A DNA stretch of 64,000 bases from an uncultured Alphaproteobacteria bacterium (GTDB taxonomy: Bacteria > Pseudomonadota > Alphaproteobacteria > CAAHEQ01 > UBA3637). A program made the position numbers and the translations under genes. The notes under the pieces are model-generated. The model saw only the letters and a program-made list of their open reading frames with translations, did not search any database and was not told the DNA's origin. Each line of letters begins with the position of its first letter. Positions within the stretch are counted from its first letter, which is position 1. The stretch covers positions 6,079 to 70,078 of the forward strand of contig CAJOPC010000004.1 in the NCBI GenBank assembly GCA_905236245.1, in the 5' to 3' direction. This document shows positions 13,378-54,212 of this stretch, piece after piece.

Positions 13378-13400
13378 AAATACTTAAATAAAGAAATAAA

Positions 13401-37560: not shown

Positions 37561-37590
37561 AAAAGCCCTCATTTGAAAGAGGGCTATAAT
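37561..37590 (-). terminator. Terminator downstream of tRNA-Phe
   Basis: On the minus strand: AGCCCTC-tttcaaatg-AGGGCT followed by TTTTCTTTT. Confidence 0.65.
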
Positions 37591-37593
37591 AAA

Positions 37594-37669
37594 TGGTGCC
37601 TGGAGACGGAATCGGACCGCCGACACAGGGATTTTCAGTCCCTTGCTCTACCAACTGAGCTATCCAGGC
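37594..37669 (-). tRNA. tRNA-Phe (anticodon GAA), CCA encoded
   Basis: The reverse complement reads GCCTGGATAGCTCAGTTGGTAGAGCAAGGGACTGAAAATCCCTGTGTCGGCGGTTCGATTCCGTCTCCAGGCACCA. It has a 7-bp acceptor stem and a CT-GAA-AA anticodon loop, and closely resembles E. coli tRNA-Phe. Confidence 0.92.
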
Positions 37670-37718
37670 CGGTTGTAGTGTTTATTATACACATTTTTAA
37701 ACGAATTGCAAGGACTTT

Positions 37719-38300: not shown

Positions 38301-38349
38301 TTTTATCCCCTAATTTTTTGTACTACTTTTCCATTTTTAAAAATTACTT

Positions 38350-39189
38350 TTACCTACACAATGGTGTAATAAATGGTCCATTTGATTTAGGACGAGAAAA
38401 ATTACCCACATCACTGTTATTAGCCGACACATTAAACATTGCACAGGAATTATCAGCTGAGTAATTAGAGCTGGTCCAAAAACTAACTGGTCCAAAATTT
38501 TGCCTCAGAGCAATAATCACAGCACTATAATGAGAATATACGAAATCTTCATGCTCTGGCAAAATAGTTTTATTCTCACATTGATAACAATTTTCCCAAT
38601 AATTATACCAAGGCCCTGCACTTTGACCAGATACACAACAAGAAGAGTATATACCGGAACCACCAGTAACTAGTGTTGAAGTATCACTCTGATAACAATT
38701 AAACTCGGCCACATCTATTAAAGATTTACCCTGTGCTTTGCACCAATTATCCGCAGACCACCAACTCATCCGTTCATATTTGTTAATGACTTCCCCTAAT
38801 CCTTCTATATTAACAGGGCCAAGCACATCTCCGATAGCGGTACAGGTTCCTGTATTTGGTTGTTCACAATTTGATCCATCCAAATTACAGTATTCGCCCT
38901 CATTACAATCCTCATTACTCTTACAACCATCAAAAATTGTTTCCGTACCACATGGATCTTCTTTGTATGACAAATACACATTACCATTGGCACAAACCGT
39001 ACATTTTCCAAATCTATCCTCTAACACGCCAGCGGCACAAGCGCCACCTTTTCCATTGATACGCACATCAACAGAGTCCACTCCTACTCCGCGATATACG
39101 GAGCTCTTACGACTTTTCCCGCCACCACCAAAGGCCAAAACACTTGTTGCCATTAAAAGTGCTGTTCCAAATAATAATATTTTATTCAT
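38350..39189 (-). CDS. Secreted cysteine-rich protein, family member P2 (conserved leader plus CTLD-like C-terminal domain)
   Basis: MNKILLFGTALLMATSVLAFGGGGKSRKSSVYRGVGVDS leader. The first ~105 aa match P3 at all but one position, after which the sequences diverge. WWSADNWCKAQGKSLIDVAEF motif. AAGGAG RBS. Confidence 0.8.
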   Translation of the reverse strand: MNKILLFGTALLMATSVLAFGGGGKSRKSSVYRGVGVDSVDVRINGKGGACAAGVLEDRFGKCTVCANGNVYLSYKEDPCGTETIFDGCKSNEDCNEGEYCNLDGSNCEQPNTGTCTAIGDVLGPVNIEGLGEVINKYERMSWWSADNWCKAQGKSLIDVAEFNCYQSDTSTLVTGGSGIYSSCCVSGQSAGPWYNYWENCYQCENKTILPEHEDFVYSHYSAVIIALRQNFGPVSFWTSSNYSADNSCAMFNVSANNSDVGNFSRPKSNGPFITPLCR

Positions 39190-39236
39190 AAAAACTCCTT
39201 TTTTAAAAATAAAACTCGCCCTGATAACTTAAAGTC

Positions 39237-39265
39237 ATTATATGTCATCCATTTTTAAATAGCAA
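39237..39265 (-). promoter_or_regulatory. Consensus sigma70 promoter of P2 (TTGCTA-17 bp-TATAAT on minus strand)
   Basis: On the minus strand, TTGCTA (39265-39260) and TATAAT (39242-39237). The identical module is found upstream of P3. Confidence 0.6.
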
Positions 39266-39296
39266 CAAAAAAGCCCGAGATAATCTCGGGCTTTTC
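39266..39296 (-). terminator. Rho-independent terminator of P3
   Basis: GCCCGAG-ataatc-CTCGGGC hairpin flanked by A and T runs. Confidence 0.7.
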
Positions 39297-39311
39297 ATGA
39301 GGACTATCGGG

Positions 39312-40034
39312 TTACTTACACAATGCAGGAGCATTCATGCCTTGTCCACCCTGTCGGCCATCTCTTGGGCCAATATATTTATCAAAAGTGCGCACATAAA
39401 CACTCTTACAGATATCTATACCATCATTTACCCAAAACCAATTATAACTTATCTTATCCAAAACTGGTTGCCAATCTAAATGACATCCAGAACTTTCTTG
39501 ACACGTTTCACCATTGATAATGACACCACTAACACTGGAAGGATCAATACCAATATCTTCTAAGCCAATCAACTGTTTTCCCCTAGCAGCACACCAATTT
39601 TCAGCAGCCCAATAGGAAAAAGAATCTTGGCTAATTATACAACCATCATCAAAAGTTGTTTTAATATCATTCTCATTTAATGGAGAACACACGCCTGTAT
39701 CTGGCTGTTCACAATTACTACCTGTCAAATTGCAATATTCATTTTCTCCACATTGTACATTACTTACACAACCTGTTACACTTGTTTCCGTACCACATGG
39801 ATCTTCTTCGTATGACAAATACACATTACCATTGGCACAAACCGTACATTTTCCAAATCTATCCTCTAACACACCAGCAGCACAAGCACCACCTTTTCCA
39901 TTAATATGCACATCAACAGAGTCCACTCCTACTCCGCGATATACGGAGCTCTTACGACTTTTCCCACCTCCACCAAAGGCCAAAACACTTGTTGCCATTA
40001 AAAGCGCTGTTCCAAATAATAATACTTTGTTCAT
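39312..40034 (-). CDS. Secreted cysteine-rich protein, family member P3 (tandem paralog of P2)
   Basis: Leader and first ~105 aa match P2 at all but one position (K/V at the fourth residue). Divergent C-terminus still containing YWAAENWCAARGKQLIGL. Confidence 0.8.
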   Translation of the reverse strand: MNKVLLFGTALLMATSVLAFGGGGKSRKSSVYRGVGVDSVDVHINGKGGACAAGVLEDRFGKCTVCANGNVYLSYEEDPCGTETSVTGCVSNVQCGENEYCNLTGSNCEQPDTGVCSPLNENDIKTTFDDGCIISQDSFSYWAAENWCAARGKQLIGLEDIGIDPSSVSGVIINGETCQESSGCHLDWQPVLDKISYNWFWVNDGIDICKSVYVRTFDKYIGPRDGRQGGQGMNAPALCK

Positions 40035-40070
40035 AAAAGCTCCTTTTTTAAAAATAAAACTCGCCTTGAT

Positions 40071-40231
40071 GAGAGGCGGTTGGAAGCTCGAAAACTATCA
40101 GATAGAATAGTGCGACATATTTCGGTGTTAACACCTTTATTTTGTCACCTTCCAACCACGTGATTGGAATTTTTCGTCCTTGGACGCTATCTGAAAGGCT
40201 TTCGAGACCTTAGATCGGGAATCACCCAATC
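40071..40231 (-). other. About 160-bp structured MITE-like insert in the P3 5'UTR (absent from the otherwise identical P2 leader)
   Basis: Flanked by sequence shared with the P2 leader. It contains a perfect 12-bp palindrome GGTGTTAACACC, a near-palindrome TTCCAACCACGTGATTGGAA, and outer inverted arms CTCGAAA...CAGATAG / CTATCTG...TTTCGAG. Confidence 0.55.
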
Positions 40232-40238
40232 CAAAGTC

Positions 40239-40267
40239 ATTATATGTCATCCATTTTTAAATAGCAA
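40239..40267 (-). promoter_or_regulatory. Consensus sigma70 promoter of P3 (same module as P2)
   Basis: TTGCTA...TATAAT, identical to the P2 promoter sequence. Confidence 0.6.
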
Positions 40268-40269
40268 CA

Positions 40270-40300
40270 AAAAAAGCCCCGATTACTCAGGGCTTTTATT
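40270..40300 (-). terminator. Terminator of the PFOR gene
   Basis: AGCCCC-gattactca-GGGCT hairpin plus T-run, immediately downstream of the stop at 40316. Confidence 0.6.
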
Positions 40301-40315
40301 TATTATCGGAAAGAT

Positions 40316-43300
40316 TTATTTTTCTTCCCCGGCCAGTTGTTTGTAGTATGCCCAACGGTCATCCACTTGCTTTTGAGCCTGTTTCAACAATTCCTCATAG
40401 TGTTCCGGATCTTGTTGTTTCACATACTTAAAGCGTGTTTCTGTGGCCATAAAATCGGCGACAGGAATGCTTGGCTTACTATCTAACTGGAATGGATTTT
40501 TACCTTCCGCTTTCAGGCGCGGATCAAAACGATACAATGGCCACAAGCCGGATTTCACCGCCAATTGTTGATGGTTCAATCCTTCCTTACCGATATCATA
40601 CCCATGGTTGATACAGTGGCTGTAAGCAATGATCAAGCTTGGTCCATTAAAGGATTCGGCTTCGTTCATGGCTTTCAAAGCTTGAGCATCATTAGCACCC
40701 AAGGAAATGCTTGCCACATAAACTTCGCCCGAACTCATGGCAATGGCGCCCAAGTCTTTGCGTGGCAAGCTGCTGCCCGACACGGCAAACTTAGCGGACG
40801 CACCAATCGGTGTTGCTTTAGAACGTTGTCCACCAGTGTTGGAATAAACCTCGGTATCCATGACCATAATGTTCACATTCTTGCCAGAGTACAAAGCGTG
40901 ATCTAAACCACCATAGCCGATATCATAGGCCCAACCGTCACCGCCCAAAATCCACACGGATTTTTTAACGAGATAGTCGGCATGTTCGCTCATCAATTTC
41001 ACACGATCACCAGACAAGGTTGCCAATTTTTCTTTCAACGCTTTCACACGATCACGTTGAGCGGCAATACCTTCCTCTGTTGTTTGATCGGCATTTAAAA
41101 TACTGTCAGCCAATTCGGCACCAACTTGGTCTTTCAATTCGCCCAATAACTGAATTGCAAATTCAATTTTGGAATCAACCGAAGTACGCATACCTAAACC
41201 AAACTCAGCATTGTCTTCAAACAAACTGTTTGCCCAAGCGGGGCCTCTGCCTTCTTCATTTTGTGCATACGGTGTTGTCGGTAAGTTACCGCCATAGATG
41301 GAGGAACAACCTGTTGCATTGGCCACCAACAAACGATCACCAAAGAGCTGCGTCATCATCTTGACATACGGCGTTTCGCCACACCCAGCGCAAGCGCCAG
41401 AGAATTCAAACAATGGACGCATGAGTGCTACACTCTTCACCGCTTTTGGATTCAACTTGCTGCGATCCGCATCTGGCAATTGCATAAAGAAGTCAAAGTT
41501 CTTGATTTCTTGATCAATATGCTTTTCAATTGGCTCCATAACAAGCGTGTTTTTCGCTTTCATTGGGCAAACCTGCGTACACAAAGAACACCCTGTGCAA
41601 TCTTCTGGAGCTACCTGAACAATAAACTTGTTACCGGCAAAATCAGGTGTCTTATAATCCGAGGACTTAAAGCCCTCCGGCGCATTTGCCAATGTTTCTG
41701 GTTTAGCCACTTTTGCACGAATAGCGGCATGTGGACACACAGACACACATTTACCGCATTGGATACATGTTTCTGGATCCCAGCAAGGAATCTCCGTTGC
41801 CACACGGCGTTTTTCATAGCGAGCGGTATCGCTTGGCCACGTCCCATCCACAGTCCATTCAAACGCGGAGACAGGTAATTCATTTCCTTTTTCTTCAATG
41901 ATTTTACCCGTCACATTACGAATCAACTCTGGCGCAGTCGTTGGTACACCCGGTTGACGATGAATCTTGGAGTTTGCTTCTCCGATCTTCACTTCATACA
42001 AATGCTCCAAACTGGCATCCACGGCCTTGATGTTAGCATCCACCACTTCTTGACCTTTTTTCATATAGGTTTTTGTAATGGCTGCTTTAATCTTTTCAAT
42101 TGCCACATCCTTTGGCAACACGCCGGAAATAGCAAAGAAACAAGCCTGCATGATTGTGTTGATTCTGCGACCCATGCCTGTCTTACCGGCCACATCCACC
42201 GCATCAATGGCATACATTTTAATCTTCTTATCAATGATCTCTTGTTGCACCTCAATCGGTAAACTGTCCCATACTTGATCGGCAGGGGTTTGTGTATTCA
42301 ACAAGAACACAGAATTTGGTGCAGCCACCGCCAACAAATCAATCTTATGCAAGAATGGTTCATGGTGACAAGCCACAAAGTCAGCGGATGTAATCAAATA
42401 CGGCGCCTTAATCGGGCTCTTACCAAAGCGCAAGTGAGATGTTGTCATCGCACCCGACTTTTTGGAATCATACACAAAGTATGCTTGCCCATACATATCA
42501 TCGGCATCTGCAATAATTTTGATAGAGTTCTTATTTGCACCAACAGTACCATCAGAACCCAAACCAAAGAAGATACAACGACTGAGGTCTTGGGCTGGTA
42601 AATTCCAAGTGGCATCATAATCCAAAGATCCATTTGTCACATCATCATTGATACCAACGGTGAAGTGATTCTTTTCCACGTTTTCAAACACAGCTTTTGC
42701 CATAGCGGGCGTGAATTCTTTGGAGGAAATTCCATAACGGCCACCCAACACTTTTGGCATAGCGCGGCCATTGACAGCCCCTTCGGCCAAAGCGGATACA
42801 ACATCCAAGTACAAAGGTTCACCAACGGAACCAGCTTCTTTTGTTCTGTCTAATACTGTCACATATTTCACGGATTCAGGCAAAGCCGCCACAAATGCTT
42901 TGGATGGGAACGGACGATACAAATGTACCGCCACAACACCATATTTACCACCATTGGCATTCAAGGCTTTTACTGTTTCAGATAATGTTTCTACACCGGA
43001 ACCCATAGCAACCACAACATGTTCAGCATCTTTGGCGCCAACATAATCCACAATATGATAAGCACGGCCAGTGACTTCTTCAAACTTGCGCATACATTTT
43101 TCAACGATTTCTGGGCAAGCCTGATAATACTTGTTTGCAGCTTCTTTAATTTGGAAGAATACATCCGGATTCTGAGCTGTACCACGAACCTTTGGATGAT
43201 CCGGCGTCAAAGCGTTCTTACCTGTAAAGTCTGTTGGAATATCCGCCATCAAAGCCTTCAAATCATCATCACTCATCATATTGATTTTGTTGATTTCGTG

Positions 43301-43828
43301 GGATGTGCGGAATCCATCAAAGAAATGCAAGAACGGAATGCGTGACAAATATGTGGACATTTGCGCCACCGCGGCCAAATCATGTGCTTCCTGAACCGAG
43401 TTGGAAGCCAACATTGCAAATCCCGTTTGACGGCAAGCCATCACATCCGAGTGATCACCAAAAATGGACAAAGCATGTCCTGCAACAGTACGAGCCGCCA
43501 CATGCATCACAAATGGCAACAATTCGCCAGCAATCTTGTACATATTCGGAATCATCAACAACAAACCTTGGCTGGCGGTATAAGTTGTGGTCATAGATCC
43601 AGCTTGCAAAGCCCCATGCACGGCACCGATAGCTCCAGCTTCAGATTGCATTTCCAAAACTTGCGGCACTTTGCCCCAAATGTTTTGTTGTTTACCGGCC
43701 GCCCAAGCGTCCGCCCATTCGCCCATTGGAGAAGATGGCGTAATCGGATAAATAATGGAAAGTTCGTTCAATTTATATGCCACTGTAGCAGCGGCTTCGT
43801 TTGCATCAAGCATTTTTGTTTTAGACAT
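40316..43828 (-). CDS. nifJ: Pyruvate:ferredoxin (flavodoxin) oxidoreductase, single-polypeptide PFOR
   Basis: About 1170 aa. Two 4Fe-4S ferredoxin motifs (CIQCGKCVSVCP, CTGCSLCTQVCP). TPP-binding GDGW motif. The start is set at MSKTKMLD (43826-43828 rev). Confidence 0.92.
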   Translation of the reverse strand: MSKTKMLDANEAAATVAYKLNELSIIYPITPSSPMGEWADAWAAGKQQNIWGKVPQVLEMQSEAGAIGAVHGALQAGSMTTTYTASQGLLLMIPNMYKIAGELLPFVMHVAARTVAGHALSIFGDHSDVMACRQTGFAMLASNSVQEAHDLAAVAQMSTYLSRIPFLHFFDGFRTSHEINKINMMSDDDLKALMADIPTDFTGKNALTPDHPKVRGTAQNPDVFFQIKEAANKYYQACPEIVEKCMRKFEEVTGRAYHIVDYVGAKDAEHVVVAMGSGVETLSETVKALNANGGKYGVVAVHLYRPFPSKAFVAALPESVKYVTVLDRTKEAGSVGEPLYLDVVSALAEGAVNGRAMPKVLGGRYGISSKEFTPAMAKAVFENVEKNHFTVGINDDVTNGSLDYDATWNLPAQDLSRCIFFGLGSDGTVGANKNSIKIIADADDMYGQAYFVYDSKKSGAMTTSHLRFGKSPIKAPYLITSADFVACHHEPFLHKIDLLAVAAPNSVFLLNTQTPADQVWDSLPIEVQQEIIDKKIKMYAIDAVDVAGKTGMGRRINTIMQACFFAISGVLPKDVAIEKIKAAITKTYMKKGQEVVDANIKAVDASLEHLYEVKIGEANSKIHRQPGVPTTAPELIRNVTGKIIEEKGNELPVSAFEWTVDGTWPSDTARYEKRRVATEIPCWDPETCIQCGKCVSVCPHAAIRAKVAKPETLANAPEGFKSSDYKTPDFAGNKFIVQVAPEDCTGCSLCTQVCPMKAKNTLVMEPIEKHIDQEIKNFDFFMQLPDADRSKLNPKAVKSVALMRPLFEFSGACAGCGETPYVKMMTQLFGDRLLVANATGCSSIYGGNLPTTPYAQNEEGRGPAWANSLFEDNAEFGLGMRTSVDSKIEFAIQLLGELKDQVGAELADSILNADQTTEEGIAAQRDRVKALKEKLATLSGDRVKLMSEHADYLVKKSVWILGGDGWAYDIGYGGLDHALYSGKNVNIMVMDTEVYSNTGGQRSKATPIGASAKFAVSGSSLPRKDLGAIAMSSGEVYVASISLGANDAQALKAMNEAESFNGPSLIIAYSHCINHGYDIGKEGLNHQQLAVKSGLWPLYRFDPRLKAEGKNPFQLDSKPSIPVADFMATETRFKYVKQQDPEHYEELLKQAQKQVDDRWAYYKQLAGEEK

Positions 43829-43894
43829 GTTTTTCCTTTCAAAAATTGATGGCAATTTTATACAACTTTTTTTCATAAATTGCAAGCATAAAAT

Positions 43895-43928
43895 CTTAAA
43901 AAAATCCCCATCTTTTTGACGGGGATTT
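43895..43928 (-). terminator. Terminator of P4
   Basis: ATCCCCgtcaaaaagatGGGGAT hairpin plus T-run on the minus strand. Confidence 0.6.
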
Positions 43929-43998
43929 GAACAAAACATTTTTCCTATATTCTCGTTTGATAATTCACAACAATTTCACCTACACAAAAATATAAAAA

Positions 43999-44715
43999 TC
44001 ATTGATTACATGTGTCAGGAGACCAACTACCCCCAGGGGTCACTTCACCAGCACAACATCCCCAAGACCAACTTCCACCATCACACTCCGGCCCATGTCG
44101 AGATAAACAATATGGGGTTGTATCTTTTGGACAACAAATATAGCCTATACACACATTGTTTTCATCGTACTTGTAACAAACGGGTTCAGTTCCCGGAGTG
44201 GTACAACATAAATCTGATCCATCTAGCCCTTTACCTTCAAATACTTCACCATTACAACATGTATAATTATCTCCATATGAAAAACGACCACTCAAATAAG
44301 GCTTTCCTCCACTGGGGCAACACAAAGACCAGTTATAAACACAATTTCCATCAGCATCACGAGTAAAACAAAAAAGGGTGCCGGTGCAACACATTGAAGC
44401 CCACGACCCTACTTGGCGAGAAGCCGATTCTCCTGCTGGGCAACAAAAATTCAATTCTTCATTACAACACTGGTATTCGCCTGATTCGTTCTGACTACAT
44501 ACATTATCACCATAACAACAACCTTTACCGCACTTAACACCATCTGAGCACGTCTCCTCTGAATCACTATCTTTTCCACTAAAATGCACACCGATAGAAT
44601 CAACGCCTACGCCACGATAAACGGAAGATTTGCGACTCTTTCCTCCTCCGCCGCCAAAGGCTAAAACAGAGGTTGCTACCAAAATTGCCATTCCAAATAA
44701 TAATACCTTTTTCAT
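43999..44715 (-). CDS. Secreted cysteine-rich protein, family member P4 (conserved leader plus tandem CC-x-G repeat C-terminal domain)
   Basis: MKKVLLFGMAILVATSVLAFGGGGGKSRKSSVYRGVGVDSIGVHF leader. The C-terminus contains many CC pairs (CCYGDN, CCNEE, CCPAGE, CCTGT, CCPSGG, CCNGE, CCTTPG, CCPKD, CCAGE). AGGAG RBS. It lies 18 nt downstream of the preceding gene. Confidence 0.8.
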   Translation of the reverse strand: MKKVLLFGMAILVATSVLAFGGGGGKSRKSSVYRGVGVDSIGVHFSGKDSDSEETCSDGVKCGKGCCYGDNVCSQNESGEYQCCNEELNFCCPAGESASRQVGSWASMCCTGTLFCFTRDADGNCVYNWSLCCPSGGKPYLSGRFSYGDNYTCCNGEVFEGKGLDGSDLCCTTPGTEPVCYKYDENNVCIGYICCPKDTTPYCLSRHGPECDGGSWSWGCCAGEVTPGGSWSPDTCNQ

Positions 44716-44733
44716 ATTAATCTCCTAAAAAAT

Positions 44734-45156
44734 TTAATGGTGATGATGATGGTGCCTGATTGTCCGCAAATAATCCTGTCTTTCACGATACGAATCTTGA
44801 TAAGTGGATTCATCACGTTCCATTTCGGCATGCTCTTGAATACATGTCCATAACGCCTCTTTTGAAATAGCGCTATCTTTAAAGTAATTCTCACAAGTCG
44901 TGTTTAACTTATCAATTTTTTGCTCAATTCTATCTGCCAATTCTTTGCTAACGGAACCTGACATATGATACAAACGCCTAAATAATTTTTCATAAAACAA
45001 ATGGCACTTCATATTCTGTTCTGAACCAGGCTGAAAACCCAACACTTCTTCACATTGACGATTCAAAGCTTCTTGATAACGTGCCTCACCAATTCGATCA
45101 GAGTCTGCCATCGGGTTAAGTAACAAAGAAGTTAATAAAATACTTCCCCAAAACAC
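44734..45156 (-). CDS. Small secreted protein with a natural C-terminal hexahistidine tail (putative metal-binding), co-transcribed with P4
   Basis: GTG start with an AAGGAGG RBS. Hydrophobic N-terminus. Ends ...TIRHHHHHH-stop. The likely promoter TTGCAT-17-TATTAT is upstream. Confidence 0.6.
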   Translation of the reverse strand: MFWGSILLTSLLLNPMADSDRIGEARYQEALNRQCEEVLGFQPGSEQNMKCHLFYEKLFRRLYHMSGSVSKELADRIEQKIDKLNTTCENYFKDSAISKEALWTCIQEHAEMERDESTYQDSYRERQDYLRTIRHHHHHH

Positions 45157-45261
45157 AAAAGCCTCCTTTTTTTAATGATTTACATGAAAGTATAATACCA
45201 TACATGAAATAAAATGCAAGCACTTATTTCGTTTTCGGGAATCATTTGAAATTATTTTAAA

Positions 45262-46410
45262 TCAATAATTAGATTTTCCTTGATTAAAAAAACCTAAATG
45301 CCGGTTTGTCTTACCTATTTGATTAAAAGAAACTTCCACCATTTTGGTGTAATTAATTCTTTTATCTTTATCTTTAGAAATAATTTGCTCTACACTTACT
45401 CTGGATTCACCAACTTTAGCAAAAATACCATGGAAATACCGCTTAAAAGAAGCAACCAACTCACGCAACTGAACCGGATTCGATGCTTCTCGGACTAAGT
45501 CCGATGCAAACGAAGTCACAGCAGCGCGCTTTAAATCAAGCAACTGTCGTTCCCGCGCGGCGGGAGAAAGATGAATGACTTTATCATACAATCCTTCATC
45601 AATCAATTTAGCAGATTTCAAATACTCCAAAGCGGTTACAATACGCACCTGAGCTCTTTGAAATAAACACTCTTCCTTTTTACCATGAATGTATTGGAAA
45701 GCAACCGGTCGCAAACCATAATCACGAATATCCGCCAAGGCTTTATAAATTCGAAAATTATTTAATTTCTGCAAAGCGCTAGAAGCGCGCATTGTTCTAA
45801 CTCCTAAAGGGGAACGACCTTTTCCGATCGCCATTTTATTCATCCACACCCAACCCGCATCTTCATCAACAGGAGTCGCCCGTTGGCACATTAACTCATC
45901 TACAACACTCACCTTTCCCTTTTGATCTGTGCGCACTTCTTCCATATACAATGCAGTGCTTAAGGCTGCAACCAATTTAATTGGTTTGTCCAAACGAAGA
46001 CATAAATTTATATAAGCATCAAAATTTTGATCAGCCAAATACTTTAAAAGCAAGGAAACTTTTTTTGGGGGCGTAGAAATAAACGCAGCTCCCGCATTCT
46101 CTGGATTCTGAATAGAATTTTGAATTTCTTCCGTTACCATGGAATCTTGCCAACGTTCCATATGATTAAATAATGCTTCATAATCCACAGGATCCACCAA
46201 TCCAAAAACAGCAAACAAAGGTAAATCAGAATAGCTATGATACGCCCGCCACGCAACCAAATCTTTGGCATGCGCTTTCGAATCAAAAAACTTTTTCATG
46301 ATCCTTCTCTGAGACAACCGAACTCGTTCTGAATTCAATGTATCTCTGGCAACTTCTACGCGTTGTATCCATTGAAAATCTCGTTTATCATTTGCCATCA
46401 TACACTCCAA
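45262..46410 (-). CDS. Hypothetical protein (382 aa)
   Basis: Long ORF. I recognise no family. Confidence 0.45.
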   Translation of the reverse strand: MECMMANDKRDFQWIQRVEVARDTLNSERVRLSQRRIMKKFFDSKAHAKDLVAWRAYHSYSDLPLFAVFGLVDPVDYEALFNHMERWQDSMVTEEIQNSIQNPENAGAAFISTPPKKVSLLLKYLADQNFDAYINLCLRLDKPIKLVAALSTALYMEEVRTDQKGKVSVVDELMCQRATPVDEDAGWVWMNKMAIGKGRSPLGVRTMRASSALQKLNNFRIYKALADIRDYGLRPVAFQYIHGKKEECLFQRAQVRIVTALEYLKSAKLIDEGLYDKVIHLSPAARERQLLDLKRAAVTSFASDLVREASNPVQLRELVASFKRYFHGIFAKVGESRVSVEQIISKDKDKRINYTKMVEVSFNQIGKTNRHLGFFNQGKSNY

Positions 46411-46517
46411 ACAAAACTAATTGGTCGCTATTGTACAAGATTTTTTAATTATGTCAAGTTTTTACATACTATAAAAAGCCCCACCAGTTGGCAGGGCTTT
46501 CGTATTGTCTGAAAAAA

Positions 46518-47702
46518 TTACTTTTCCAAAATGGCAACACCCGGCAAAGATTTGCCTTCCATCCATTCCAAGAAAGCACCACCGGCCGCAGACACATAGG
46601 TCATGTCGGCTTTTACACCTGCTTTTTTTAAAGCGGAAACGGTATCACCACCGCCTGCGACGGATGTCAAAGCGCCGGCCTTTGTTTGATCGGCCACCAC
46701 TTTGGCAATTTCGTTTGTGGCTTTGTCAAAAGGTTTGATTTCAAATGCGCCCACCGGGCCGTTCCAAATCAATGTCTTTGCATTTTTAATCACATCAGCA
46801 AAAGCAGCCACAGATTTTTCTCCAATATCTAACAATACTTTGCCGGCAGGTACCGCATTTACATCGGATGTATGGGGCTCTTGACCTTCAGCAAAGGCAT
46901 CGGCCCATACCAAATCTACAGGCAAAACAATTTTGCAATTACCGGCATTAGCCAAAATGTTTTTAGCTGTATCAATCATATCTGGTTCAACCAAAGAGCC
47001 TTCGCCCATTGGAATTCCTTGTGCAGCCAAAAAAGTATGAGCCATACCGCCACCAATGAGCAAGTAATCTACTTTCTTCACCAAGTTACCCAATAAATCC
47101 AATTTCGTGGAAACTTTGCTACCACCCACCAAAGCAACGGCTGGATGGACAGGGTTACCCAAAGCTTTGTCCAAAGCCTCCAATTCTTCCTGCATCAAAC
47201 GACCTGCGCCATTTGGCAACAAATGTGCCATACCTTCTGTGGAGGCATGCGCACGATGTGCCGTTGAGAAAGCATCATTGATATAAATATCCATACCATG
47301 TGCCAAACTTTCGGCGAATTCGCGATCGTTGGCTTCTTCTCCTTCATAGAAGCGTAAGTTTTCCAACAAAATAACTTCGCCTGGTTGCATAGCTGCTACA
47401 GCAGCATCACGAGCTTCGCCCACACAATCGTCAATGAATTTCACGGAAACACCTGCCGCTTTTTCCAAAGCAGGAGCCAAAAAAGCCATAGAAAATTCCG
47501 GATTCTTTTGACCTTTCGGACGACCAAAGTGACTAGCCACCACGGCTTTACCACCATGTTCAATAATATATTTCAAAGTCGGCACAAAACGATCGATACG
47601 AGTTGTATCTGTGATTTGTCCATCCTTGGCAGGCACATTCAAGTCTGCACGAATAAAAACTGTTTTACCGTTAAAATCAAAATTATCCAAAGTATTAAAC
47701 AT
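46518..47702 (-). CDS. pgk: Phosphoglycerate kinase
   Basis: MFNTLDNFDFNGKTVFIRADLNVP N-terminus and conserved Pgk motifs throughout. The start is set at the internal Met. Confidence 0.95.
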   Translation of the reverse strand: MFNTLDNFDFNGKTVFIRADLNVPAKDGQITDTTRIDRFVPTLKYIIEHGGKAVVASHFGRPKGQKNPEFSMAFLAPALEKAAGVSVKFIDDCVGEARDAAVAAMQPGEVILLENLRFYEGEEANDREFAESLAHGMDIYINDAFSTAHRAHASTEGMAHLLPNGAGRLMQEELEALDKALGNPVHPAVALVGGSKVSTKLDLLGNLVKKVDYLLIGGGMAHTFLAAQGIPMGEGSLVEPDMIDTAKNILANAGNCKIVLPVDLVWADAFAEGQEPHTSDVNAVPAGKVLLDIGEKSVAAFADVIKNAKTLIWNGPVGAFEIKPFDKATNEIAKVVADQTKAGALTSVAGGGDTVSALKKAGVKADMTYVSAAGGAFLEWMEGKSLPGVAILEK

Positions 47703-47822
47703 TTTTGTCCTTTCTTTTGTTAAAATAATTGTGTCCATTGTTTTAATCTTTTTTTAAAAAAATTGCAAGAGGAATTTATTTGAAGCCTTAACAAAAATCC
47801 CCCGACAAATCGGGGGAAAATA

Positions 47823-48737
47823 TTACAGGACACACGTATCGGGTTCATTTTTTGATCCTGGGGTAACTGTTCCAGGACAACATCTCCAAGAGGCACCACC
47901 ACAACATCCCTCATATCGGGAGACACAATAAGGCGTTTCTCCTTCACTACAACATGCTGCTTGATAATAGTAATTTTGTTGAATAAAAAACGATGTTACA
48001 CAATCTGCCTTGCCACATGCATATCCATATCCTCTACATTTTTCTCCGTTGGTTTCATATTCTGCACAATATCCTTTTTCTCCCTCTGCACAACAAATAT
48101 GTACAGTACAATTACCTGCATCATCATACTCCGCACAAACTGGTTTTTTCCCATCATAACAGCACAAATCAGCCCCATCCACGCCTTTCTCTTTATAAAC
48201 TTTTCCTCCATTAGAACAACACATATATTGATCTCCATAAGAAAATTTACCATTTATATAAGGCTCTCCATCACAACATAAATACTCTTTAGTACCATCA
48301 TCACGTTCATAAGGGCCATATACTTTCCCTCCAGTTGGGCAACAAGAAGTAGACGTACAATTATCTTCTGCATCTTTATAACTGCAAAACAATTTCCCAG
48401 CACAGCAAGTCGTCTCCCAATATCCTCTGAAGATACGATATGCTCCACCACTTATTGGGCAACAATGATTTAATTCTTCACTGCAGCACTGATACTCGCC
48501 AGACTCATTCTGCTTGCACACATTATCACCATAACAACAACCGCTGCCACATTTGATACCATCAGAACAGGTCTCTTTTCCTGAATCGTCATCTTTTCCA
48601 TTAAAATGTACACCGATAGAATCAATACCTGTGCCGCGGTAGACAGATGCCTTTCGACTTTTTCCGCCCCCACCACCAAAGGCAAAAACCGATGTTGCCA
48701 CCAAAATTGCCGTTCCGAATAATAAAACTTTTTTCAT
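47823..48737 (-). CDS. Secreted cysteine-rich protein, family member P5 (conserved leader plus CC-x-G repeat domain, P4-like)
   Basis: MKKVLLFGTAILVATSVFAFGGGGGKSRKASVYRGTGIDSIGVHFNGKDDDSGKETCSDGIKCGSGCCYGDNVC parallels P4. The C-terminus is longer and repeat-rich. Confidence 0.8.
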   Translation of the reverse strand: MKKVLLFGTAILVATSVFAFGGGGGKSRKASVYRGTGIDSIGVHFNGKDDDSGKETCSDGIKCGSGCCYGDNVCKQNESGEYQCCSEELNHCCPISGGAYRIFRGYWETTCCAGKLFCSYKDAEDNCTSTSCCPTGGKVYGPYERDDGTKEYLCCDGEPYINGKFSYGDQYMCCSNGGKVYKEKGVDGADLCCYDGKKPVCAEYDDAGNCTVHICCAEGEKGYCAEYETNGEKCRGYGYACGKADCVTSFFIQQNYYYQAACCSEGETPYCVSRYEGCCGGASWRCCPGTVTPGSKNEPDTCVL

Positions 48738-48832
48738 CTTTTATCCTTTCTTTATTAAATTACAAAACACCCCTGCCTTACGGCACGGTTTAATTCATCG
48801 GCGTCGCCGATTTTGCTCGGCAAGCTTTTAAT

Positions 48833-48854
48833 TGTGTGTGTGTGTGTGTGTGTG
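48833..48854. repeat. (TG)11 dinucleotide microsatellite, about 100 bp upstream of the P5 start codon
   Basis: Perfect TG x 11, visible directly in the sequence. Confidence 0.9.
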
Positions 48855-48965
48855 TACAAAATAAGGGCTATCGCCTTATTCACGTTCGCTATTTTTTTTA
48901 AAATCATAGAATCATTCCTACACATGGCTTCATTTTGACATATACTTCAATGAATTGTCAAGGGG

Positions 48966-49000
48966 AAAACAAAAAAATACTCCCGATTGTGCGGGAGTAT
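48966..49000 (-). terminator. Terminator of the FadL-family gene
   Basis: ATACTCCCGcacaatCGGGAGTAT hairpin plus a 7-T run on the minus strand. Confidence 0.7.
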
Positions 49001-49019
49001 TTTCGATTTTTACCCGATA

Positions 49020-50258
49020 TTAAAAATGATACTGGGCGCTTAAACCAAGGCTGTTGAGTTGCGTATGATATGTTCCGCGAATTTCGGTCTGTCCCGTTGT
49101 GTTAGCTTTACTAGCCACACGAGCTTTGGACCAAAACATATGGAAATAGCTGGCATCGATTTGCCAATTACCTCTTTTATAACTGGCACCAATACTGGCA
49201 ATCCAGCGGTTTGCGTCTGGCACACGCGCGGTACGATGCTTTGGATCTTTTACCGCACCTTGATCATAAGCCAAACCAGTCCGGAAGGTCAAATTTTTGC
49301 AATAATGATAATCGACGCCACCAGAAACTGTCCAAGTATTCCGCCAATTTTCATCAACTTGAGATGGAGTTCTCCCAGGGCCTAATTGAGCCAAAGCCGT
49401 TGAATCAATAGACAACAAATTGAAACGGCTCCAACGTGTCCAACGTGCCATAGCAGAAAGACCAAACTTGCCAACTTCTTGATAGGCTGTTAATTGAATG
49501 TGCTCTGGATCTACCAACTTTGTACTACTATAACCTTCTTTACGCCCCACTGCGGGATTTGGGTGTTGAAAGTGGTGTTTACCTTTAATATTTTGCACAA
49601 TCGGAGAACGATAAGCCACACCGAAACGTGCTGTCTTTGTTGGCTCAACCATAATACCAGCATTCCAACCATGTCCCCAACCATCAGCATTCATGTCGGA
49701 TTTACCGCCAGCAGCAGAATCCAATGTATTTGTTAAACGTGCTTGCATGCGTTCCAAAATAAAGCCACCACCAATACTCAACCATTGCAATGGTTTCCAT
49801 GCCAAAGATGGATGGATATCAATTGTTTCAATCTCACTCACCAAAGAATGTGTACGACCAAACCAAGATTTATTATAATATGTGCCCAATCCAAACGGTA
49901 CATACAATCCTAAACCTAAACGCCAATTTTCGGAAAGCGCATATTGTCCGAAAGCATGCGGAATCAATTTAAAGTTACGCAATTTACCTTTGGAAGTCGC
50001 TGTACCATCACTCAATGAACCACCTTCCACATTGGAATGAATGTCCATTCCCATAGCACCCAATTGCATACCCGACTTTCTCAAAGTCATACCGGCAGGG
50101 TTAAAAGCCACTGCAGAATAATCGTCACCAACGATACCTGCTCCGGCAAAAGCACGACCGGCATTTGTGACAGAGTATTCCTGTAATTGATAACCACCGG
50201 CCCAAACACTGGTGGAAGCCATTAATAATACTGCTAATAATGTTAATTTACTTTTCAT
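49020..50258 (-). CDS. FadL/OmpP1/TodX family outer-membrane hydrophobic-compound transporter
   Basis: Signal peptide. The mature N-terminus AGGYQLQEYSVTNAGRAFAGAG is typical of FadL. C-terminal aromatic residue (..YHF). Confidence 0.8.
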   Translation of the reverse strand: MKSKLTLLAVLLMASTSVWAGGYQLQEYSVTNAGRAFAGAGIVGDDYSAVAFNPAGMTLRKSGMQLGAMGMDIHSNVEGGSLSDGTATSKGKLRNFKLIPHAFGQYALSENWRLGLGLYVPFGLGTYYNKSWFGRTHSLVSEIETIDIHPSLAWKPLQWLSIGGGFILERMQARLTNTLDSAAGGKSDMNADGWGHGWNAGIMVEPTKTARFGVAYRSPIVQNIKGKHHFQHPNPAVGRKEGYSSTKLVDPEHIQLTAYQEVGKFGLSAMARWTRWSRFNLLSIDSTALAQLGPGRTPSQVDENWRNTWTVSGGVDYHYCKNLTFRTGLAYDQGAVKDPKHRTARVPDANRWIASIGASYKRGNWQIDASYFHMFWSKARVASKANTTGQTEIRGTYHTQLNSLGLSAQYHF

Positions 50259-50435
50259 TTTTTCTCCTTTTGTTTCACTTTGGTGACACTATTATTACAC
50301 TTTTATTACAACAATGCAACAAAAAAATTTAAAAAAATGAAACTATCTTATTTTTCAAAATAAAATACGCATCTAAACTCATATACAACAAAAAAACACC
50401 CCCGAGTTTCGAGGGTGTTTCTTTTAAGTTGAAGA

Positions 50436-51443
50436 TTACAACAATTTGCCCATAGCAACGGCTGTATCCAACATACGATTGGAGAATCCCCATTCGTTGT
50501 CATACCAGCTCATCACACGCAATTGTGTACCACCCATCACCTTTGTGCCGTTAGCATCAAATGTGGAGGAGTGAGCATCATGTGTAAAGTCGATGCTGAC
50601 CAATTTTTCGGCGTTGTAACCCAAAATTCCTTTGAGTTCACCTTCTGCAGCGGCTTTCAAAGCGGCGTTGACTTCATCAACGGTTACTTCTTTTTCCATA
50701 ATGAAGTTAGCATCCACCAAAGAAACATCTGGGGTCGGCACGCGAATCGAAACACCGTCCAATTTGCCGGCCAATTCTGGCATCACCAAACCAATAGCTT
50801 TAGCAGCACCAGTCTTTGTTGGAATCATGCTCATAGCAGCAGCACGAGCGCGATACAAATCTTTATGTAATTGATCCAAAATCTTTTGATCATTTGTGTA
50901 GCTGTGAATTGTTGTCATAAAGCCTTGTTTAATGCCAAAAGCTTTTTGCAATACATAGACCACAGGGGCCAAACAGTTTGTTGTGCAAGATGCATTAGAA
51001 ACAACCAAATCTTCGGCTGTCAATGTATTTTGGTTCACACCGTACACGATTGTCTTATCGGCGCCTTCTGATGGAGCAGACACCAACACGCGTTTTGCAC
51101 CAGCTTGCAAATGCACCATAGCTTTTTCCTTGGATGTAAAGATACCTGTGCATTCAAACACGATATCAACACCCATTTCACCCCATGGCAATTGTGTTGG
51201 ATCTTTTTGAGCAATCACGCGGGTCTTTTTATCTCCGGCGAGCAAATATTCACCCTCGGCACGAATATCCATATCTAATTTTCTGTGAATAGAATCATAC
51301 TTCAACAAATAAGCATTGGCGGCGGCGTCACCCAAATCATTGATGGCAACGATATCCACATCTGTGCGGCCAGATTCCAACCAAGCACGATATACCAAAC
51401 GGCCAATACGGCCAAATCCGTTAATAGCAACTTTTACTGTCAT
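50436..51443 (-). CDS. gap: Glyceraldehyde-3-phosphate dehydrogenase (type I)
   Basis: [15 protein letters not shown] start. [10 protein letters not shown] active site. The upstream ORF extension was rejected. Confidence 0.95.
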
Positions 51444-51529
51444 TTTCTTTATTTTCCTTTCATTAAAAATACGACTTAAAAATCGTGCCTTTGATATAAG
51501 CATATTTTTTATAAAATTGCAAGCACTTT

Positions 51530-51558
51530 TTGACAGATTTTGAGTTCCATGGTATAAT
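51530..51558 (+). promoter_or_regulatory. Perfect consensus sigma70 promoter (TTGACA-17 bp-TATAAT) driving a small ORF
   Basis: TTGACA at 51530-51535 and TATAAT at 51553-51558. Confidence 0.65.
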
Positions 51559-51584
51559 GAAAGTGTCAACGGAAAGGAGAGCAC

Positions 51585-51752
51585 ATGGCAGCAACAAACG
51601 ACAGACTACAACAGCTGAAACGAATCCGCGAAGAATTCTATCGCAAGAAAACAGAAGCTAAGGAAAATGCAAAAAGCGTCAAACGCCAAATGTCTAACCA
51701 ACTATTGCAACTGGCAAAGCTCAATATAAAGGGCTCTCAAAGAGCCGCCTAA
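51585..51752 (+). CDS. Unannotated small basic protein (55 aa)
   Basis: ATG 7 nt after a GGAAAGGAGA RBS. Sequence [55 protein letters not shown]. It is below the 60-aa ORF-track cutoff. Confidence 0.5.
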
Positions 51753-53437
51753 TGCGCTTGATATAGCGGCCAACGCTTTTGAACAATTTCGTCCAAGGAT
51801 TCCAAGGACTTGCCCATTAAGTTTTGATAAACCCAATAGTTGACCAAAATTCTTTCAACAAATCCGCGGGTCTCCTTAGAGGGTAAAATTTCCAAAAATA
51901 ATAGCGGATCATCATGATAATTCATTTTATTTTTCCATTTTGTTAAATTACCAGGCCCTGCATTATATGCAACCGCCAAAAAGATAAGGTTATTATTTAC
52001 TTGAGGATATTCCTCCATTAAACGCATTAAGTACGCTTGTCCCAAACGCAAATTATAGGCCGGATCTTTAAGTGCATTTTTTGAAAATGGGCACTGCAAA
52101 ACCCCTGCCAATTCTCTGGCTGTATCTGGCATTAATTGCATCAATCCCAAAGCGCCCGCATGGCTTTCTGCACGATTATTAAAACAAGATTCCTGTCTGA
52201 CAAAAGCATAGACCAATTCTTTTTTCAGTTTCCATCCCCCTTGGGGCGTCCAATTCGGCATAGGATAACGCACATCTTCTCCCTGTAGCGTTCCCGTCAA
52301 TCCTTGCAACACATCATCAAAATCATTTTCCTTAGAAATCAACATTAAAACGCCCTTGCCTTCGTCATCTGCTTCTAAATAAAGTTTAGACAACTCCTGG
52401 CTGGCCCACTCATCACGTCCAATTTGTCTTAAAGCATAAAAGCGCTCCAAAGCGGGGTGTGAAAAACTGGCACGCACCTCATCCACCGGCAACACGGGCG
52501 TATCCCATACATAATTTAAATCCTCTCCCAAAGCTCTAGAAGCCAACATACCATAAAAATTACGTGGTGATTTTGATGCTATCTTAAAGTATTCGATAAC
52601 AGAAGAATATTTCCCCAAACCCAAATAAGTACGAGCGGCCCAATAAGCTGCCCGCGTTTTGATATTATCCGGAGCAGATCGCATATCTGCTAAATCAGAA
52701 AAATATGAAGCTGCTTGCTCTAAATCACCTAAACTCCAACTGGCCAACCCGGCAACCCAATAACTTAACGGAACAGTATTTATCCATCTGATGGCCTCTT
52801 TAACAGTTTCTAAGGCTAAAGAATCTTCTCCATCCAATAAATAATTATAAGCCAAAGCCGTTTTGGCTTTATTTAAATCCTCTCGCGTTAATAAATGAAT
52901 TGTTTTTTTATCCTGAATCATTTGTTTTGCTGTTAAGGTGTGCCCCTGTTTTAATGCGCGAACAATTTGCTTCATCCTTTTGCTTGCCTCTTTTTTTTGA
53001 GCTCCAGACAAATAAGAAAAAGAAAGATTACTTATCAATTCTAACGGCTCTTGTCTTGAAGGACTTGAACAAGCCTGAGTATTTCCGCCAAAGAGCCCTT
53101 TGGGACGCACCAAGCGTTTGATTTTCTTTTGATTACCCAAGGCATACATATCAACCGCCACCGGCAAATCAGCATAATGCGACATCCATGAAAAAATCTC
53201 GTCTGGTTTAGTCACATACTTACGGGAAAAATAACGATCGAACAATACATATCCCTTCAATAAATTATTTTGAATTTTTTTCTCAACTGCTTTTGCGGCG
53301 GCAAAATCTCCCTTGTGTTGCAAAGTAAAAATCTGTTTATAATTTTTAATATCCGATTTAGATAGCACTTCCCCAAAGGCCCACGCATTTGATAGGCATA
53401 GGCACAAACTACACACTAGTAAAAGGACAAAGCGCAT
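51749..53437 (-). CDS. slt: Soluble lytic murein transglycosylase (Slt family)
   Basis: Signal peptide. Superhelical repeat domain. C-terminal SLT domain with ES...GLMQLMP...AYNAG motifs. Confidence 0.85.
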   Translation of the reverse strand: MRFVLLLVCSLCLCLSNAWAFGEVLSKSDIKNYKQIFTLQHKGDFAAAKAVEKKIQNNLLKGYVLFDRYFSRKYVTKPDEIFSWMSHYADLPVAVDMYALGNQKKIKRLVRPKGLFGGNTQACSSPSRQEPLELISNLSFSYLSGAQKKEASKRMKQIVRALKQGHTLTAKQMIQDKKTIHLLTREDLNKAKTALAYNYLLDGEDSLALETVKEAIRWINTVPLSYWVAGLASWSLGDLEQAASYFSDLADMRSAPDNIKTRAAYWAARTYLGLGKYSSVIEYFKIASKSPRNFYGMLASRALGEDLNYVWDTPVLPVDEVRASFSHPALERFYALRQIGRDEWASQELSKLYLEADDEGKGVLMLISKENDFDDVLQGLTGTLQGEDVRYPMPNWTPQGGWKLKKELVYAFVRQESCFNNRAESHAGALGLMQLMPDTARELAGVLQCPFSKNALKDPAYNLRLGQAYLMRLMEEYPQVNNNLIFLAVAYNAGPGNLTKWKNKMNYHDDPLLFLEILPSKETRGFVERILVNYWVYQNLMGKSLESLDEIVQKRWPLYQAH

Positions 53438-53448
53438 CTACACAAAAC

Positions 53449-54123
53449 CTAACGCAGCGGAACAAAAACCACACGTTTTTTACATGCGTTTTCTTCCATT
53501 TCTGGCACCTGACATTTCTTTACTTCTACCGCAGGCATCTCCATTATAACTTCACAAGCAGTTCCAAGCAATGTAATGCTTTCTTCCTGTGTTGCCTTTG
53601 GCGCTAAATTTCGAATGGTATAATTGGCCTCTATATCGCCGTATGTCAACTTTACCTCTAAATTTTGGATAACCCGGCGCAAGCCATTGTAAAACTTAAT
53701 AGAGCCAAAGCAATACGAGAAATTTCTATTTGGCGTAATGGTTGCATCTACGTTGTCAGAGTAAATTCGAATTTGAGCAGAACGTTTTTCTTCTTCTGTT
53801 TCTTCCTCTTCTGCTCCATCTGCTGATTTATCTTGGCTTTCAGCAGTCACAACCGACTCTGGCTCTTTGTTTTCAGCAAATAAATCTGTTTCTTCCTTTT
53901 GGGCCGCTTCTTCACCACTGGGCTGCTCTTCCTCCTCTACCTTTTCGACCGCTTCTGGTGCAATTTGTGGCACCTCCTCAGTTTCATTTTTCTTTAGCTC
54001 TTTTTTGGATTTTGGAGCAGCAACTCCCGCATCAGGGCCAAATCCCTCTAGTTCAGGAAATAATCCTTGGGCAAAAACAACACTTGTTATTAAACAAGCT
54101 CCCAATAAAAAAATTTTTTTCAT
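53449..54123 (-). CDS. Secreted acidic (Glu-rich) protein, upstream of slt
   Basis: Signal peptide MKKIFLLGACLITSVVFA. Long E/K-rich low-complexity segment. AAGGAGGG RBS before the Met at 54123. Confidence 0.55.
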   Translation of the reverse strand: MKKIFLLGACLITSVVFAQGLFPELEGFGPDAGVAAPKSKKELKKNETEEVPQIAPEAVEKVEEEEQPSGEEAAQKEETDLFAENKEPESVVTAESQDKSADGAEEEETEEEKRSAQIRIYSDNVDATITPNRNFSYCFGSIKFYNGLRRVIQNLEVKLTYGDIEANYTIRNLAPKATQEESITLLGTACEVIMEMPAVEVKKCQVPEMEENACKKRVVFVPLR

Positions 54124-54212
54124 TTTTATGCTCCCTCCTTTTGACATTTCATTTTAATTTAATTACAATAGCATACACGAACTAATATTCAATGTAAAGG
54201 AAGATTTTTAAA

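Follow-up and report, generated by a model that had tools for sequence, protein, structure and literature searches.

Why do genes for cysteine-rich secreted proteins stand between core-metabolism genes in an uncultured gut bacterium, and how did they come to be there? The locus lies in a stretch of 64,000 nucleotides from an alphaproteobacterium of the lineage CAAHEQ01, UBA3637 (GenBank assembly GCA_905236245.1, contig CAJOPC010000004.1, positions 6,079 to 70,078 of the forward strand), which we call the window. The window belongs to a 238-kb scaffold in a metagenome-assembled genome (MAG) from the gut and has a GC content of ~39%; the nearest database genomes are all MAGs of Alphaproteobacteria, several of which have names that refer to gut samples of animals or humans. 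A preliminary description of the sequence had proposed that members of one gene family (here P2 to P5) and other accessory genes are intercalated, by repeated insertion or duplication, in a conserved backbone running from gap through pgk and the pyruvate:ferredoxin oxidoreductase gene (PFOR) to tRNA-Phe. The reading we favor, at a probability of about 0.7, is turnover in slots between core genes: a modular family and other accessory genes fill the slots of a backbone, as a matter of ordinary genome plasticity. The genes of the locus, in the direction of transcription and followed by the distant P1, are these.

50436 to 51443, minus strand: gap, type I glyceraldehyde-3-phosphate dehydrogenase, 335 amino acids (aa) (Pfam Gp_dh_N and Gp_dh_C)
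49020 to 50258, minus strand: FadL/TodX-family outer-membrane transporter (Pfam Toluene_X, 2e-78), accessory relative to the fetched relatives
47823 to 48737, minus strand: P5, family member, 304 aa, signal-peptide leader and cysteine-rich (CC) repeat body (tblastn among paralogs)
46518 to 47702, minus strand: pgk, phosphoglycerate kinase, 394 aa from the ATG at 47702 (Pfam PGK, 4e-146)
45262 to 46398, minus strand: h382, hypothetical slot gene, 378 aa (no Pfam or NCBIfam match)
44734 to 45156, minus strand: His6-tailed hypothetical protein, 140 aa (translation terminates in HHHHHH)
43999 to 44715, minus strand: P4, family member of the CC-repeat type, 238 aa (leader common to all members)
40316 to 43828, minus strand: PFOR, pyruvate:ferredoxin oxidoreductase, 1170 aa (Pfam POR_N, PFOR_II, POR, EKR and Fer4)
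39312 to 40034, minus strand: P3, family member, 240 aa, leader and C-terminal C-type-lectin-like domain
38350 to 39189, minus strand: P2, family member of the C-type-lectin-like type, 279 aa (tandem duplicate of P3)
37719 to 38300, minus strand: GNAT acetyltransferase, backbone gene between P2 and tRNA-Phe (Pfam Acetyltransf_3)
37594 to 37669, minus strand: tRNA-Phe (GAA), backbone (ARAGORN)
349 to 1224, minus strand: P1, fifth family member, between rsmB (3′ end) and ychF (tblastn; Pfam of the flanking genes)

Gene calls and Pfam returned the order already described (gap, FadL, P5, pgk, h382, the His-tail gene, P4, PFOR, P3, P2), with Pfam supporting the gap, FadL, pgk, PFOR and GNAT assignments. 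The close homologs of pgk are all 394-395 aa long. The single strand claimed for 38350-51443 extends further, every gene from 36541 to 54147 being on the minus strand, and an SLT transglycosylase gene precedes gap in the direction of transcription. P2 had been placed beside tRNA-Phe; the GNAT gene (37719-38300) in fact lies between them. Three other contigs encode an identical pgk product and have mostly the same neighboring proteins as the window, so the gene order is unlikely to be an artifact of a single contig. No Pfam or NCBIfam family was found for P1-P5, h382, the His-tail protein, h131, h108 or the slot genes of the relatives.

We fetched the pgk neighborhoods from the closest available genomes and compared them at the protein and DNA level; the loci of these relatives are labeled L170, L174, L177, L002, L003, L082 and so on. 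In L170 (pgk about 98% and PFOR 97% identical to the window), the order is Sel1, a 201-aa protein with a type-IV-pilin-like N terminus, pgk, an h382 homolog (35%) and PFOR, followed by a 205-aa lipoprotein, two GNAT genes, tRNA-Phe, two copies of h108, acyP and AsmA. L174 (pgk about 96%) has Sel1, a 309-aa family member of the CC type, a small divergent open reading frame (ORF) and pgk. A 277-aa family member of the lectin-like type fills its pgk-PFOR slot, and after PFOR come a 291-aa family member, a 222-aa protein, GNAT, tRNA-Phe, h108, acyP and AsmA. L177 (pgk 93%) reads rplY-pth-rsmB, pgk, a 321-aa lipoprotein-like protein, PFOR, a 217-aa protein, GNAT and other genes. The short contig L002 (pgk about 93-95%) reads divergent ORF, pgk, h382 homolog and PFOR, and P4 is absent from it. 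PFOR is 95-97% identical to that of the window in L170, L174 and L177. GNAT is in the same place in all three, and tRNA-Phe holds the same position in L170 and L174. The His-tail gene is absent from L002, L170, L174 and L177. DNA homology with the window covers pgk, PFOR, GNAT-tRNA and h108-acyP, and it ends at the slot borders.

The comparison shows a backbone, pgk-PFOR-GNAT-tRNA-Phe-h108-acyP-AsmA, that is conserved among sister species, and three variable slots with species-specific content: upstream of pgk, between pgk and PFOR, and between PFOR and GNAT. Across species the slots hold family members, pilin-leader proteins, lipoproteins or h382-like genes. For the pgk-PFOR and PFOR-GNAT slots, the flanks are conserved in L002, L170, L174 and L177, and we found four different contents. 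A further slot, at the 3′ end of rsmB, holds P1 in the window and a 568-aa pilin-leader cysteine-rich protein in L177. The preliminary description had asked for a comparison of synteny with the nearest relatives, and its central claim of accessory genes intercalated in a conserved backbone is borne out by it: the backbone is kept, and the intervening genes differ between species.

Two side observations concern the slots and the order of genes. Homologs of h382 (L170 11323-12462 and L002 1542-2684) occupy the same pgk-PFOR slot as h382 in the window (45262-46398), and they are only ~35% identical between genomes in which the flanking pgk and PFOR share 93-98% identity; h382 has no signal peptide and is evolving extremely fast. 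In L003 (5000-17000; pgk 91%), pgk lies between dut and pyk, among more AT-rich, K/N-rich genes. The ABC-F - FucT - dut segment of this locus has a match in the species of the window (L168), where it comes after rplQ and a family member. L003 illustrates the heavy shuffling of gene order in the genus.

In the turnover reading, the family would grow partly by replacement of a slot occupant with another gene for a secreted or surface protein. Replacement would proceed by recombination in the terminator-bounded intergenic regions, not by a mobile element, and the family would encode variable host-facing proteins. Chromosomal hot spots of gene turnover between core genes were reportedly described in many bacterial species by Oliveira, Touchon, Cury and Rocha in 2017. 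The window resembles such hot spots in that the flanking core order is kept, the content is species-specific and few intervals take most of the turnover. It differs in that the slots are tiny (one to three genes), that no mobile-element genes were found in the locus, and that most of what fills the slots is a single family, or functional class, of secreted or surface proteins, not prophages or islands.

We then asked how the family itself multiplies. The 5′ regions of P2 and P3 provide the clearest case, for which the following features are needed.

40272 to 40297: terminator after PFOR
40239 to 40267: promoter-like site upstream of P3
40050 to 40178, minus strand: structured RNA leader in the 5′ untranslated region (UTR) of P3, a three-way junction followed by a terminator-like hairpin (Rfam, covariance model)
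39231 to 39296, minus strand: duplicated PFOR terminator and P3 promoter, between P3 and P2 (65-nt direct repeat)

The first 300 nt of P2 and P3 are 87% identical, and the repeat at 39231-39296 is 86% identical to 40233-40297 and gives a 97% match to the PFOR terminator of L170. P2 and P3 are clearly a recent tandem duplication of a unit consisting of the PFOR terminator, the promoter and the gene, which explains the lack of a terminator after P2. Of the proposal of "repeated insertion or duplication", then, at least one duplication stands, and repeated insertion is only part of the story. P4 and P5, 4 kb apart, are about 80% identical at the nucleotide level in their first ~280 nt and 49% identical at the protein level. 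At least five members outside the window lie singly between housekeeping genes of the same species: between recA and a [FeFe]-hydrogenase operon, between GNAT and dnaE, between glgB and DUF2497-TolC, between rplQ and ABC-F, and after uppS. P0003 was not placed on any contig. A contig of the same species encodes an [FeFe]-hydrogenase, and the window itself encodes PFOR.

The leaders of the family fall into two types. Window-type leaders are 65-96% identical among themselves, and identity between the types is 38-62%, even in corresponding slots. The second type consists of the three L174 members (5477-6406, 8279-9112 and 13039-13914) and similar proteins. The types differ although pgk and PFOR of the window and L174 are 95-97% identical. 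Genome-specific leaders of this kind point to within-genome spread or gene conversion; the sequences suggest either conversion or independent expansions. At the same time, the intergenic region from PFOR to P3 is homologous to that before the post-PFOR family gene of L174, from which it follows that the slot was occupied before the species split. By this homology the PFOR-GNAT slot appears to be old, its occupant having diverged or been replaced. Old occupancy, replacement and local duplication all enter into the history of the family, which is not a series of recent insertions.

Might the family genes simply be old, very fast-evolving positional orthologs, with loss and divergence, and no repeated insertion, accounting for the differences between species? 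The homologous PFOR-P3 intergenic region, which includes the RNA leader and precedes a lectin-like-type member in both genomes, is what this alternative would predict. So is the CC-type member directly upstream of pgk in both the window and L174, the bodies of the two being only 29% identical. Other non-core proteins are also very diverged among the relatives (AsmA 40%, GNAT 65-68%, h382 35%). The pgk-PFOR slot, however, holds h382, the His-tail gene and P4 in the window, a lectin-like member in L174, h382 in L170 and L002, and a lipoprotein-like gene in L177, and divergence alone cannot interconvert these unrelated contents. The recent duplication of P2 and P3 speaks against it as well, and so do the genome-specific leaders, with identities of 71-96% in the species of the window against 42-58% from one leader type to the other, and the within-genome spread or conversion they point to. 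We consider old orthology unlikely as the general explanation and return to turnover in slots.

Could the genes have arrived on an island? The tRNA-Phe end of the locus had been called a classical hot spot, and a genomic island integrated at tRNA-Phe could in principle have brought P2 and P3 and, by extension, the family. The tRNA gene is about 700 nt from P2, and the content just 3′ of it is also variable, h131 being present only in the window and h108 being duplicated in L170. P2 and P3, however, are on the 5′ side of tRNA-Phe, behind a GNAT gene that is conserved in L170, L174 and L177, and the slot they occupy has a family member in L174 too, so no block is missing from all relatives. The precomputed Pfam domains of all called genes include no integrase, recombinase or transposase in the locus, and our own Pfam and NCBIfam scans of the hypothetical proteins gave no family and no mobile-element domain. 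A search of the window for the 3′ end of tRNA-Phe (its final 16, 20 or 25 nt, with up to 2 mismatches) found no copy outside the tRNA gene. Base composition shows no break around the tRNA-Phe region. The family member with a homologous upstream region in the PFOR-GNAT slot of L174 places the slot before the species split. We rejected a tRNA-linked island, having found no integrase, no att repeat and no block on the 3′ side, and regard an origin of the family by such an event as highly improbable. The hot-spot idea thus fails at this tRNA. An integron cassette array was considered too; the locus has no integrase domain, and no dedicated search with an attC model was made. Elsewhere in the window, a little more than 1 kb downstream of tRNA-Leu (9344-9430), there is a low-GC stretch (9344-13922; GC 0.30 versus 0.39 for the window) with genes for an Acyl_transf_3 protein, a member of the sulfatase family and a GNAT protein. 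This tRNA-adjacent stretch looks more island-like than the tRNA-Phe region.

The slot upstream of pgk raises a separate question, since gap and pgk are adjacent in many bacteria. In the window they are co-oriented and 2.7 kb apart, so that the direct adjacency expected for co-transcription is missing and the orientation is retained. We examined 96 fetched loci, mostly alphaproteobacterial, that have both genes within 10 kb. The pair is co-oriented in 94 of them; the spacing is at most 250 nt in 56 and more than 1 kb in 28, so a split pair is common, not exceptional. In L182-184 (gap 85% and pgk 75% identical to the window), gap and pgk are adjacent, 83 nt apart, as they are in the gut MAGs L007 and L008 (pgk 63-66% identical); the spacing across these loci is 83-92 nt. 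Adjacency in these relatives, together with the 56 closely spaced pairs, indicates that adjacency is ancestral. Among closer relatives, gap is not near pgk in L170, L174, L177 or L003, whose pgk is 91-98% identical. In the gap-anchored loci L180 and L181 (gap 93-94%) and L082 (85%), neither FadL nor pgk lies downstream of gap. FadL, SLT and the genes upstream of gap had no homolog in any fetched locus of the relatives. A metagenome scan with gap gave almost only distant taxa, L082 and L083 alone being informative; in L083 a 608-aa multi-pass membrane protein, identified by sequence reading only, lies between gap and pgk. Interrupted pairs elsewhere in the Alphaproteobacteria are thus comparable, being co-oriented with one or more unrelated genes between. 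They differ from the window in that FadL and P5 stand between gap and pgk in no other fetched locus and that the closest relatives have lost the linkage entirely.

These data change the role of gap. FadL and P5 do separate it from pgk, and the family accompanies the split. Insertion of the family as its cause is another matter: in L170 and L177, gap is unlinked from pgk and no family member was found in these slots, so the family is not shown to have caused the split. Nor is gap part of the conserved backbone at the genus level, being away from pgk in relatives with 91-98% identical pgk. On parsimony, the window would keep the ancestral gap-pgk linkage, with FadL and P5 inserted between them as separate terminator-bounded units. 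In the sister lineages, the slot upstream of pgk would have been a rearrangement breakpoint repeatedly, gap having moved away entirely. One could instead take gap-FadL-P5-pgk to be a secondary re-juxtaposition or an assembly chimera and not an interrupted ancestral pair. That gap is elsewhere in 4/4 sampled species with 91-98% identical pgk agrees with this, as does the high rearrangement rate implied by two loci with 93-94% identical gap that have neither FadL nor pgk downstream. Co-orientation at 2.7 kb, however, is what one would expect if the pair descends from the adjacent arrangement of L182-184, L007, L008 and most Alphaproteobacteria, and its chance re-creation is unlikely; the three further contigs with identical pgk and mostly the same neighbors argue against a chimera. 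Re-juxtaposition or chimerism therefore seems quite improbable to us, and we retain an interrupted ancestral pair as the likelier reading.

What do the family genes encode? P1-P5 have in common an N-terminal leader of ~48 aa, a Sec-type signal peptide in each member, that is 73-96% identical among the five. The family is modular: the leader is followed by CC-rich cysteine repeats, by a C-terminal lectin-like domain, or by both, and in some homologs both body types occur in one protein. P4 and P5 are of the CC-repeat type, with about 12% Cys. The C-terminal domain of P1-P3 has the signature [MI][TS]WW[AS]A.NWC.A.G..L ... ALC[KRQ]. A word-indexed homolog search found only 20 relatives and was superseded by a full profile search of 1.84 billion representative proteins, which gave 543 representative clusters at E <= 0.001, with giant multi-repeat proteins among them. 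In the AlphaFold (AF2) model of P2, the predicted local distance difference test score (pLDDT) is about 80-90 over the C-terminal part. Foldseek against the PDB returned C-type-lectin folds for nearly all of the top 50 matches to P2, all of them non-significant (E >= 0.15, template-modeling [TM] score ~0.4); they include CLEC9A, CD94, langerin, Mtd and an FGE paralogue. The domain of P1-P3 resembles C-type lectin-like domains in its W..A...C...G..L start and ..ALC[KRQ] end, and differs from them in having no Pfam match and in its extra cysteines and insertions. Residues 70-220 of P5 are modeled as a stack of beta-hairpins (pLDDT 85-94), for which Foldseek against the PDB gave no meaningful match. 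The P5 gene has an internal periodicity of ~123 nt. The family members are probably secreted, disulfide-rich, ligand-binding proteins.

Other proteins in the slots of the relatives have a different leader, with a type-IV-prepilin-like start (G|RSMVEMLGVLAIIGVLS, Glu at +5). Their genes are at L170 9305-9910, L082 2258-2680 and 8572-9672, L177 5690-7396 and L180 5684-6850. A 366-aa pilin-leader protein of L082 has the same C-terminal lectin-like domain as P1-P3, so one domain is exported via two different N-terminal signals. The pilin-leader protein of L180 terminates in a Hint domain. A paralog of the His6-tail protein, with 28% identity, is encoded at another place in this species (L166 13265-13831).

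If genes are exchanged in the intergenic regions, the transcription signals there are of interest. The preliminary description held that every family member carries its own terminator and promoter. In addition to the signals after PFOR and upstream of P3, we found the following.

50390 to 50424: strong terminator after gap
48973 to 49004: terminator after FadL
48932 to 48961: promoter-like site upstream of P5 (promoter scan)
48833 to 48855, minus strand: (AC)11 dinucleotide repeat in the 5′ UTR of P5 (read from the sequence)
47798 to 47817: terminator after P5

Strong terminator-like hairpins thus stand directly after gap, FadL and P5. The general statement holds for P5 and P3 only. P2 has a copy of the promoter, and no terminator was detected before GNAT. 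P4 starts 18 nt past the stop codon of the His-tail gene, no promoter was detected for it, and there is no terminator before PFOR; the His-tail gene and P4 are probably co-transcribed. The (AC)11 tract, between the promoter-like site of P5 (48932-48961) and the start codon, is a candidate for phase variation by slipped-strand mispairing.

Several points weigh against turnover in slots and have to be set beside the evidence for it. The direction of events comes from parsimony over about eight partial loci, not from a genome phylogeny. We found neither recombination junctions nor flanking repeats from which the entry of genes into the slots could be read; a repeat search returned only the 5′ ends of paralogous genes and the duplicated terminator and promoter, and no flanking repeats around family genes. 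The order in the window could be a secondary re-juxtaposition, pgk having four different upstream contexts among species in which it is at least 91% identical. GC content at third codon positions (GC3) is 0.23-0.28 for the family genes, 0.37-0.43 for core genes and about 0.32 for other accessory genes, and the lower values of the family could mean foreign origin rather than weak codon selection; low GC3 fits weakly expressed, fast-evolving genes as well as foreign origin. Finally, the function of the proteins is inferred, with no Pfam or NCBIfam match and Foldseek lectin matches at E >= 0.15.

The 280-nt spacer between PFOR and P3 contains one more feature. It consists, in order, of the PFOR terminator, the promoter-like site and a conserved element of ~130 nt, the structured RNA leader at 40050-40178, which is previously unannotated. 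The element ends in a terminator-like hairpin and a U-run immediately before the ribosome-binding site of P3. It matches Rfam RF02221, sRNA-Xcc1, over its full length at a sub-threshold score (35.1 bits versus a gathering score of 53), and the orthologous copy of L174 scores 30.2 bits, below the threshold as well. The alignment covers model positions 1-87; the closing stem (9 bp), both hairpins and the junction nucleotides are formed, so the P3 leader has the consensus architecture of RF02221. We built our own covariance model from four copies, and it found 7 more copies upstream of accessory genes, further ones being much more diverged. The copies are at L174 5319-5448, 8130-8257 and 12892-13015, L166 7863-7990, L082 2714-2834 and 9666-9796, and L181 2446-2577. 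Diverged copies precede the third L174 family gene, P0014 of the species of the window, two pilin-leader genes of L082 and, in L181, unrelated small ORFs downstream of gap. In an alignment of 8 copies and one antisense row, fitted to the model, which favors the structure, 95% of the cells are paired and 15 of the 26 pairs have compensatory changes; controls with slid partners were 30-45% paired.

The 5′ arm of the closing stem has a second possible partner, a repeat further upstream with the sequence UUCCAAC, which can take the place of the downstream arm. Alternative pairing of this kind is expected of an attenuator and may work as one here. P2 has lost the element through a deletion of ~160 nt: its 5′ UTR misses positions 84-245 of the P3 upstream region, and what remains upstream of P2 (39190-39231, compared with 40035-40315) is the duplicated promoter and the final 36 nt of the leader. 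This natural deletion could make the expression of P2 independent of the leader.

In integron cassettes of Xanthomonas, copies of sRNA-Xcc1 precede symE (bioRxiv 10.1101/2025.06.18.660453). In APSE phages they precede a unique ORF, an ORF6N gene (bioRxiv 10.1101/2020.03.17.996009), and they are also found in a genomic island of Xylella (PMC12189769). The P3 leader is like them in its closing stem, two hairpins and conserved junction nucleotides over the 87-position model, and in that one genome has several copies, placed immediately before variable accessory genes. It differs in its sub-threshold score, in its AT-rich stems, in the intrinsic-terminator-like hairpin before the ribosome-binding site and in a repeat, further upstream, of the closing stem's 3′ arm, which permits alternative pairing. 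Its host is a gut alphaproteobacterium, and the locus has no integrase domain.

These features raise a possibility that we put forward tentatively and would not yet bet on: the intercalated genes may form a regulon of variable secreted or surface proteins that share a cis leader of the sRNA-Xcc1 class acting as a transcription attenuator. The members would then be cysteine-rich proteins with the signal leader, lectin-like proteins and pilin-leader proteins, and not a random collection of accessory genes. If true, this would give a widespread, cassette-associated class of RNA a cis-regulatory role, and the leader RNA, together with the shared coding sequence for the signal leader, could supply homology for gene swaps between slots. 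The placement of the leader before ribosome-binding sites points to a possible cis action of the sRNA-Xcc1 class on accessory genes.

Turnover in slots is a known kind of genome organization, found here in an unstudied gut lineage and with an uncharacterized protein family. The locus offers a small, clean example in which a streamlined host-associated genome confines the turnover of host-facing proteins to a few intergenic slots. That the slots double as rearrangement breakpoints is useful, if unsurprising, for genome evolution. The RNA leader and the fold of the family are the parts most worth following up: the leader for what it may reveal of the sRNA-Xcc1 class, and the CC-repeat domain as a confidently modeled stack of beta-hairpins with no solved counterpart, in a family that was previously uncharacterized.

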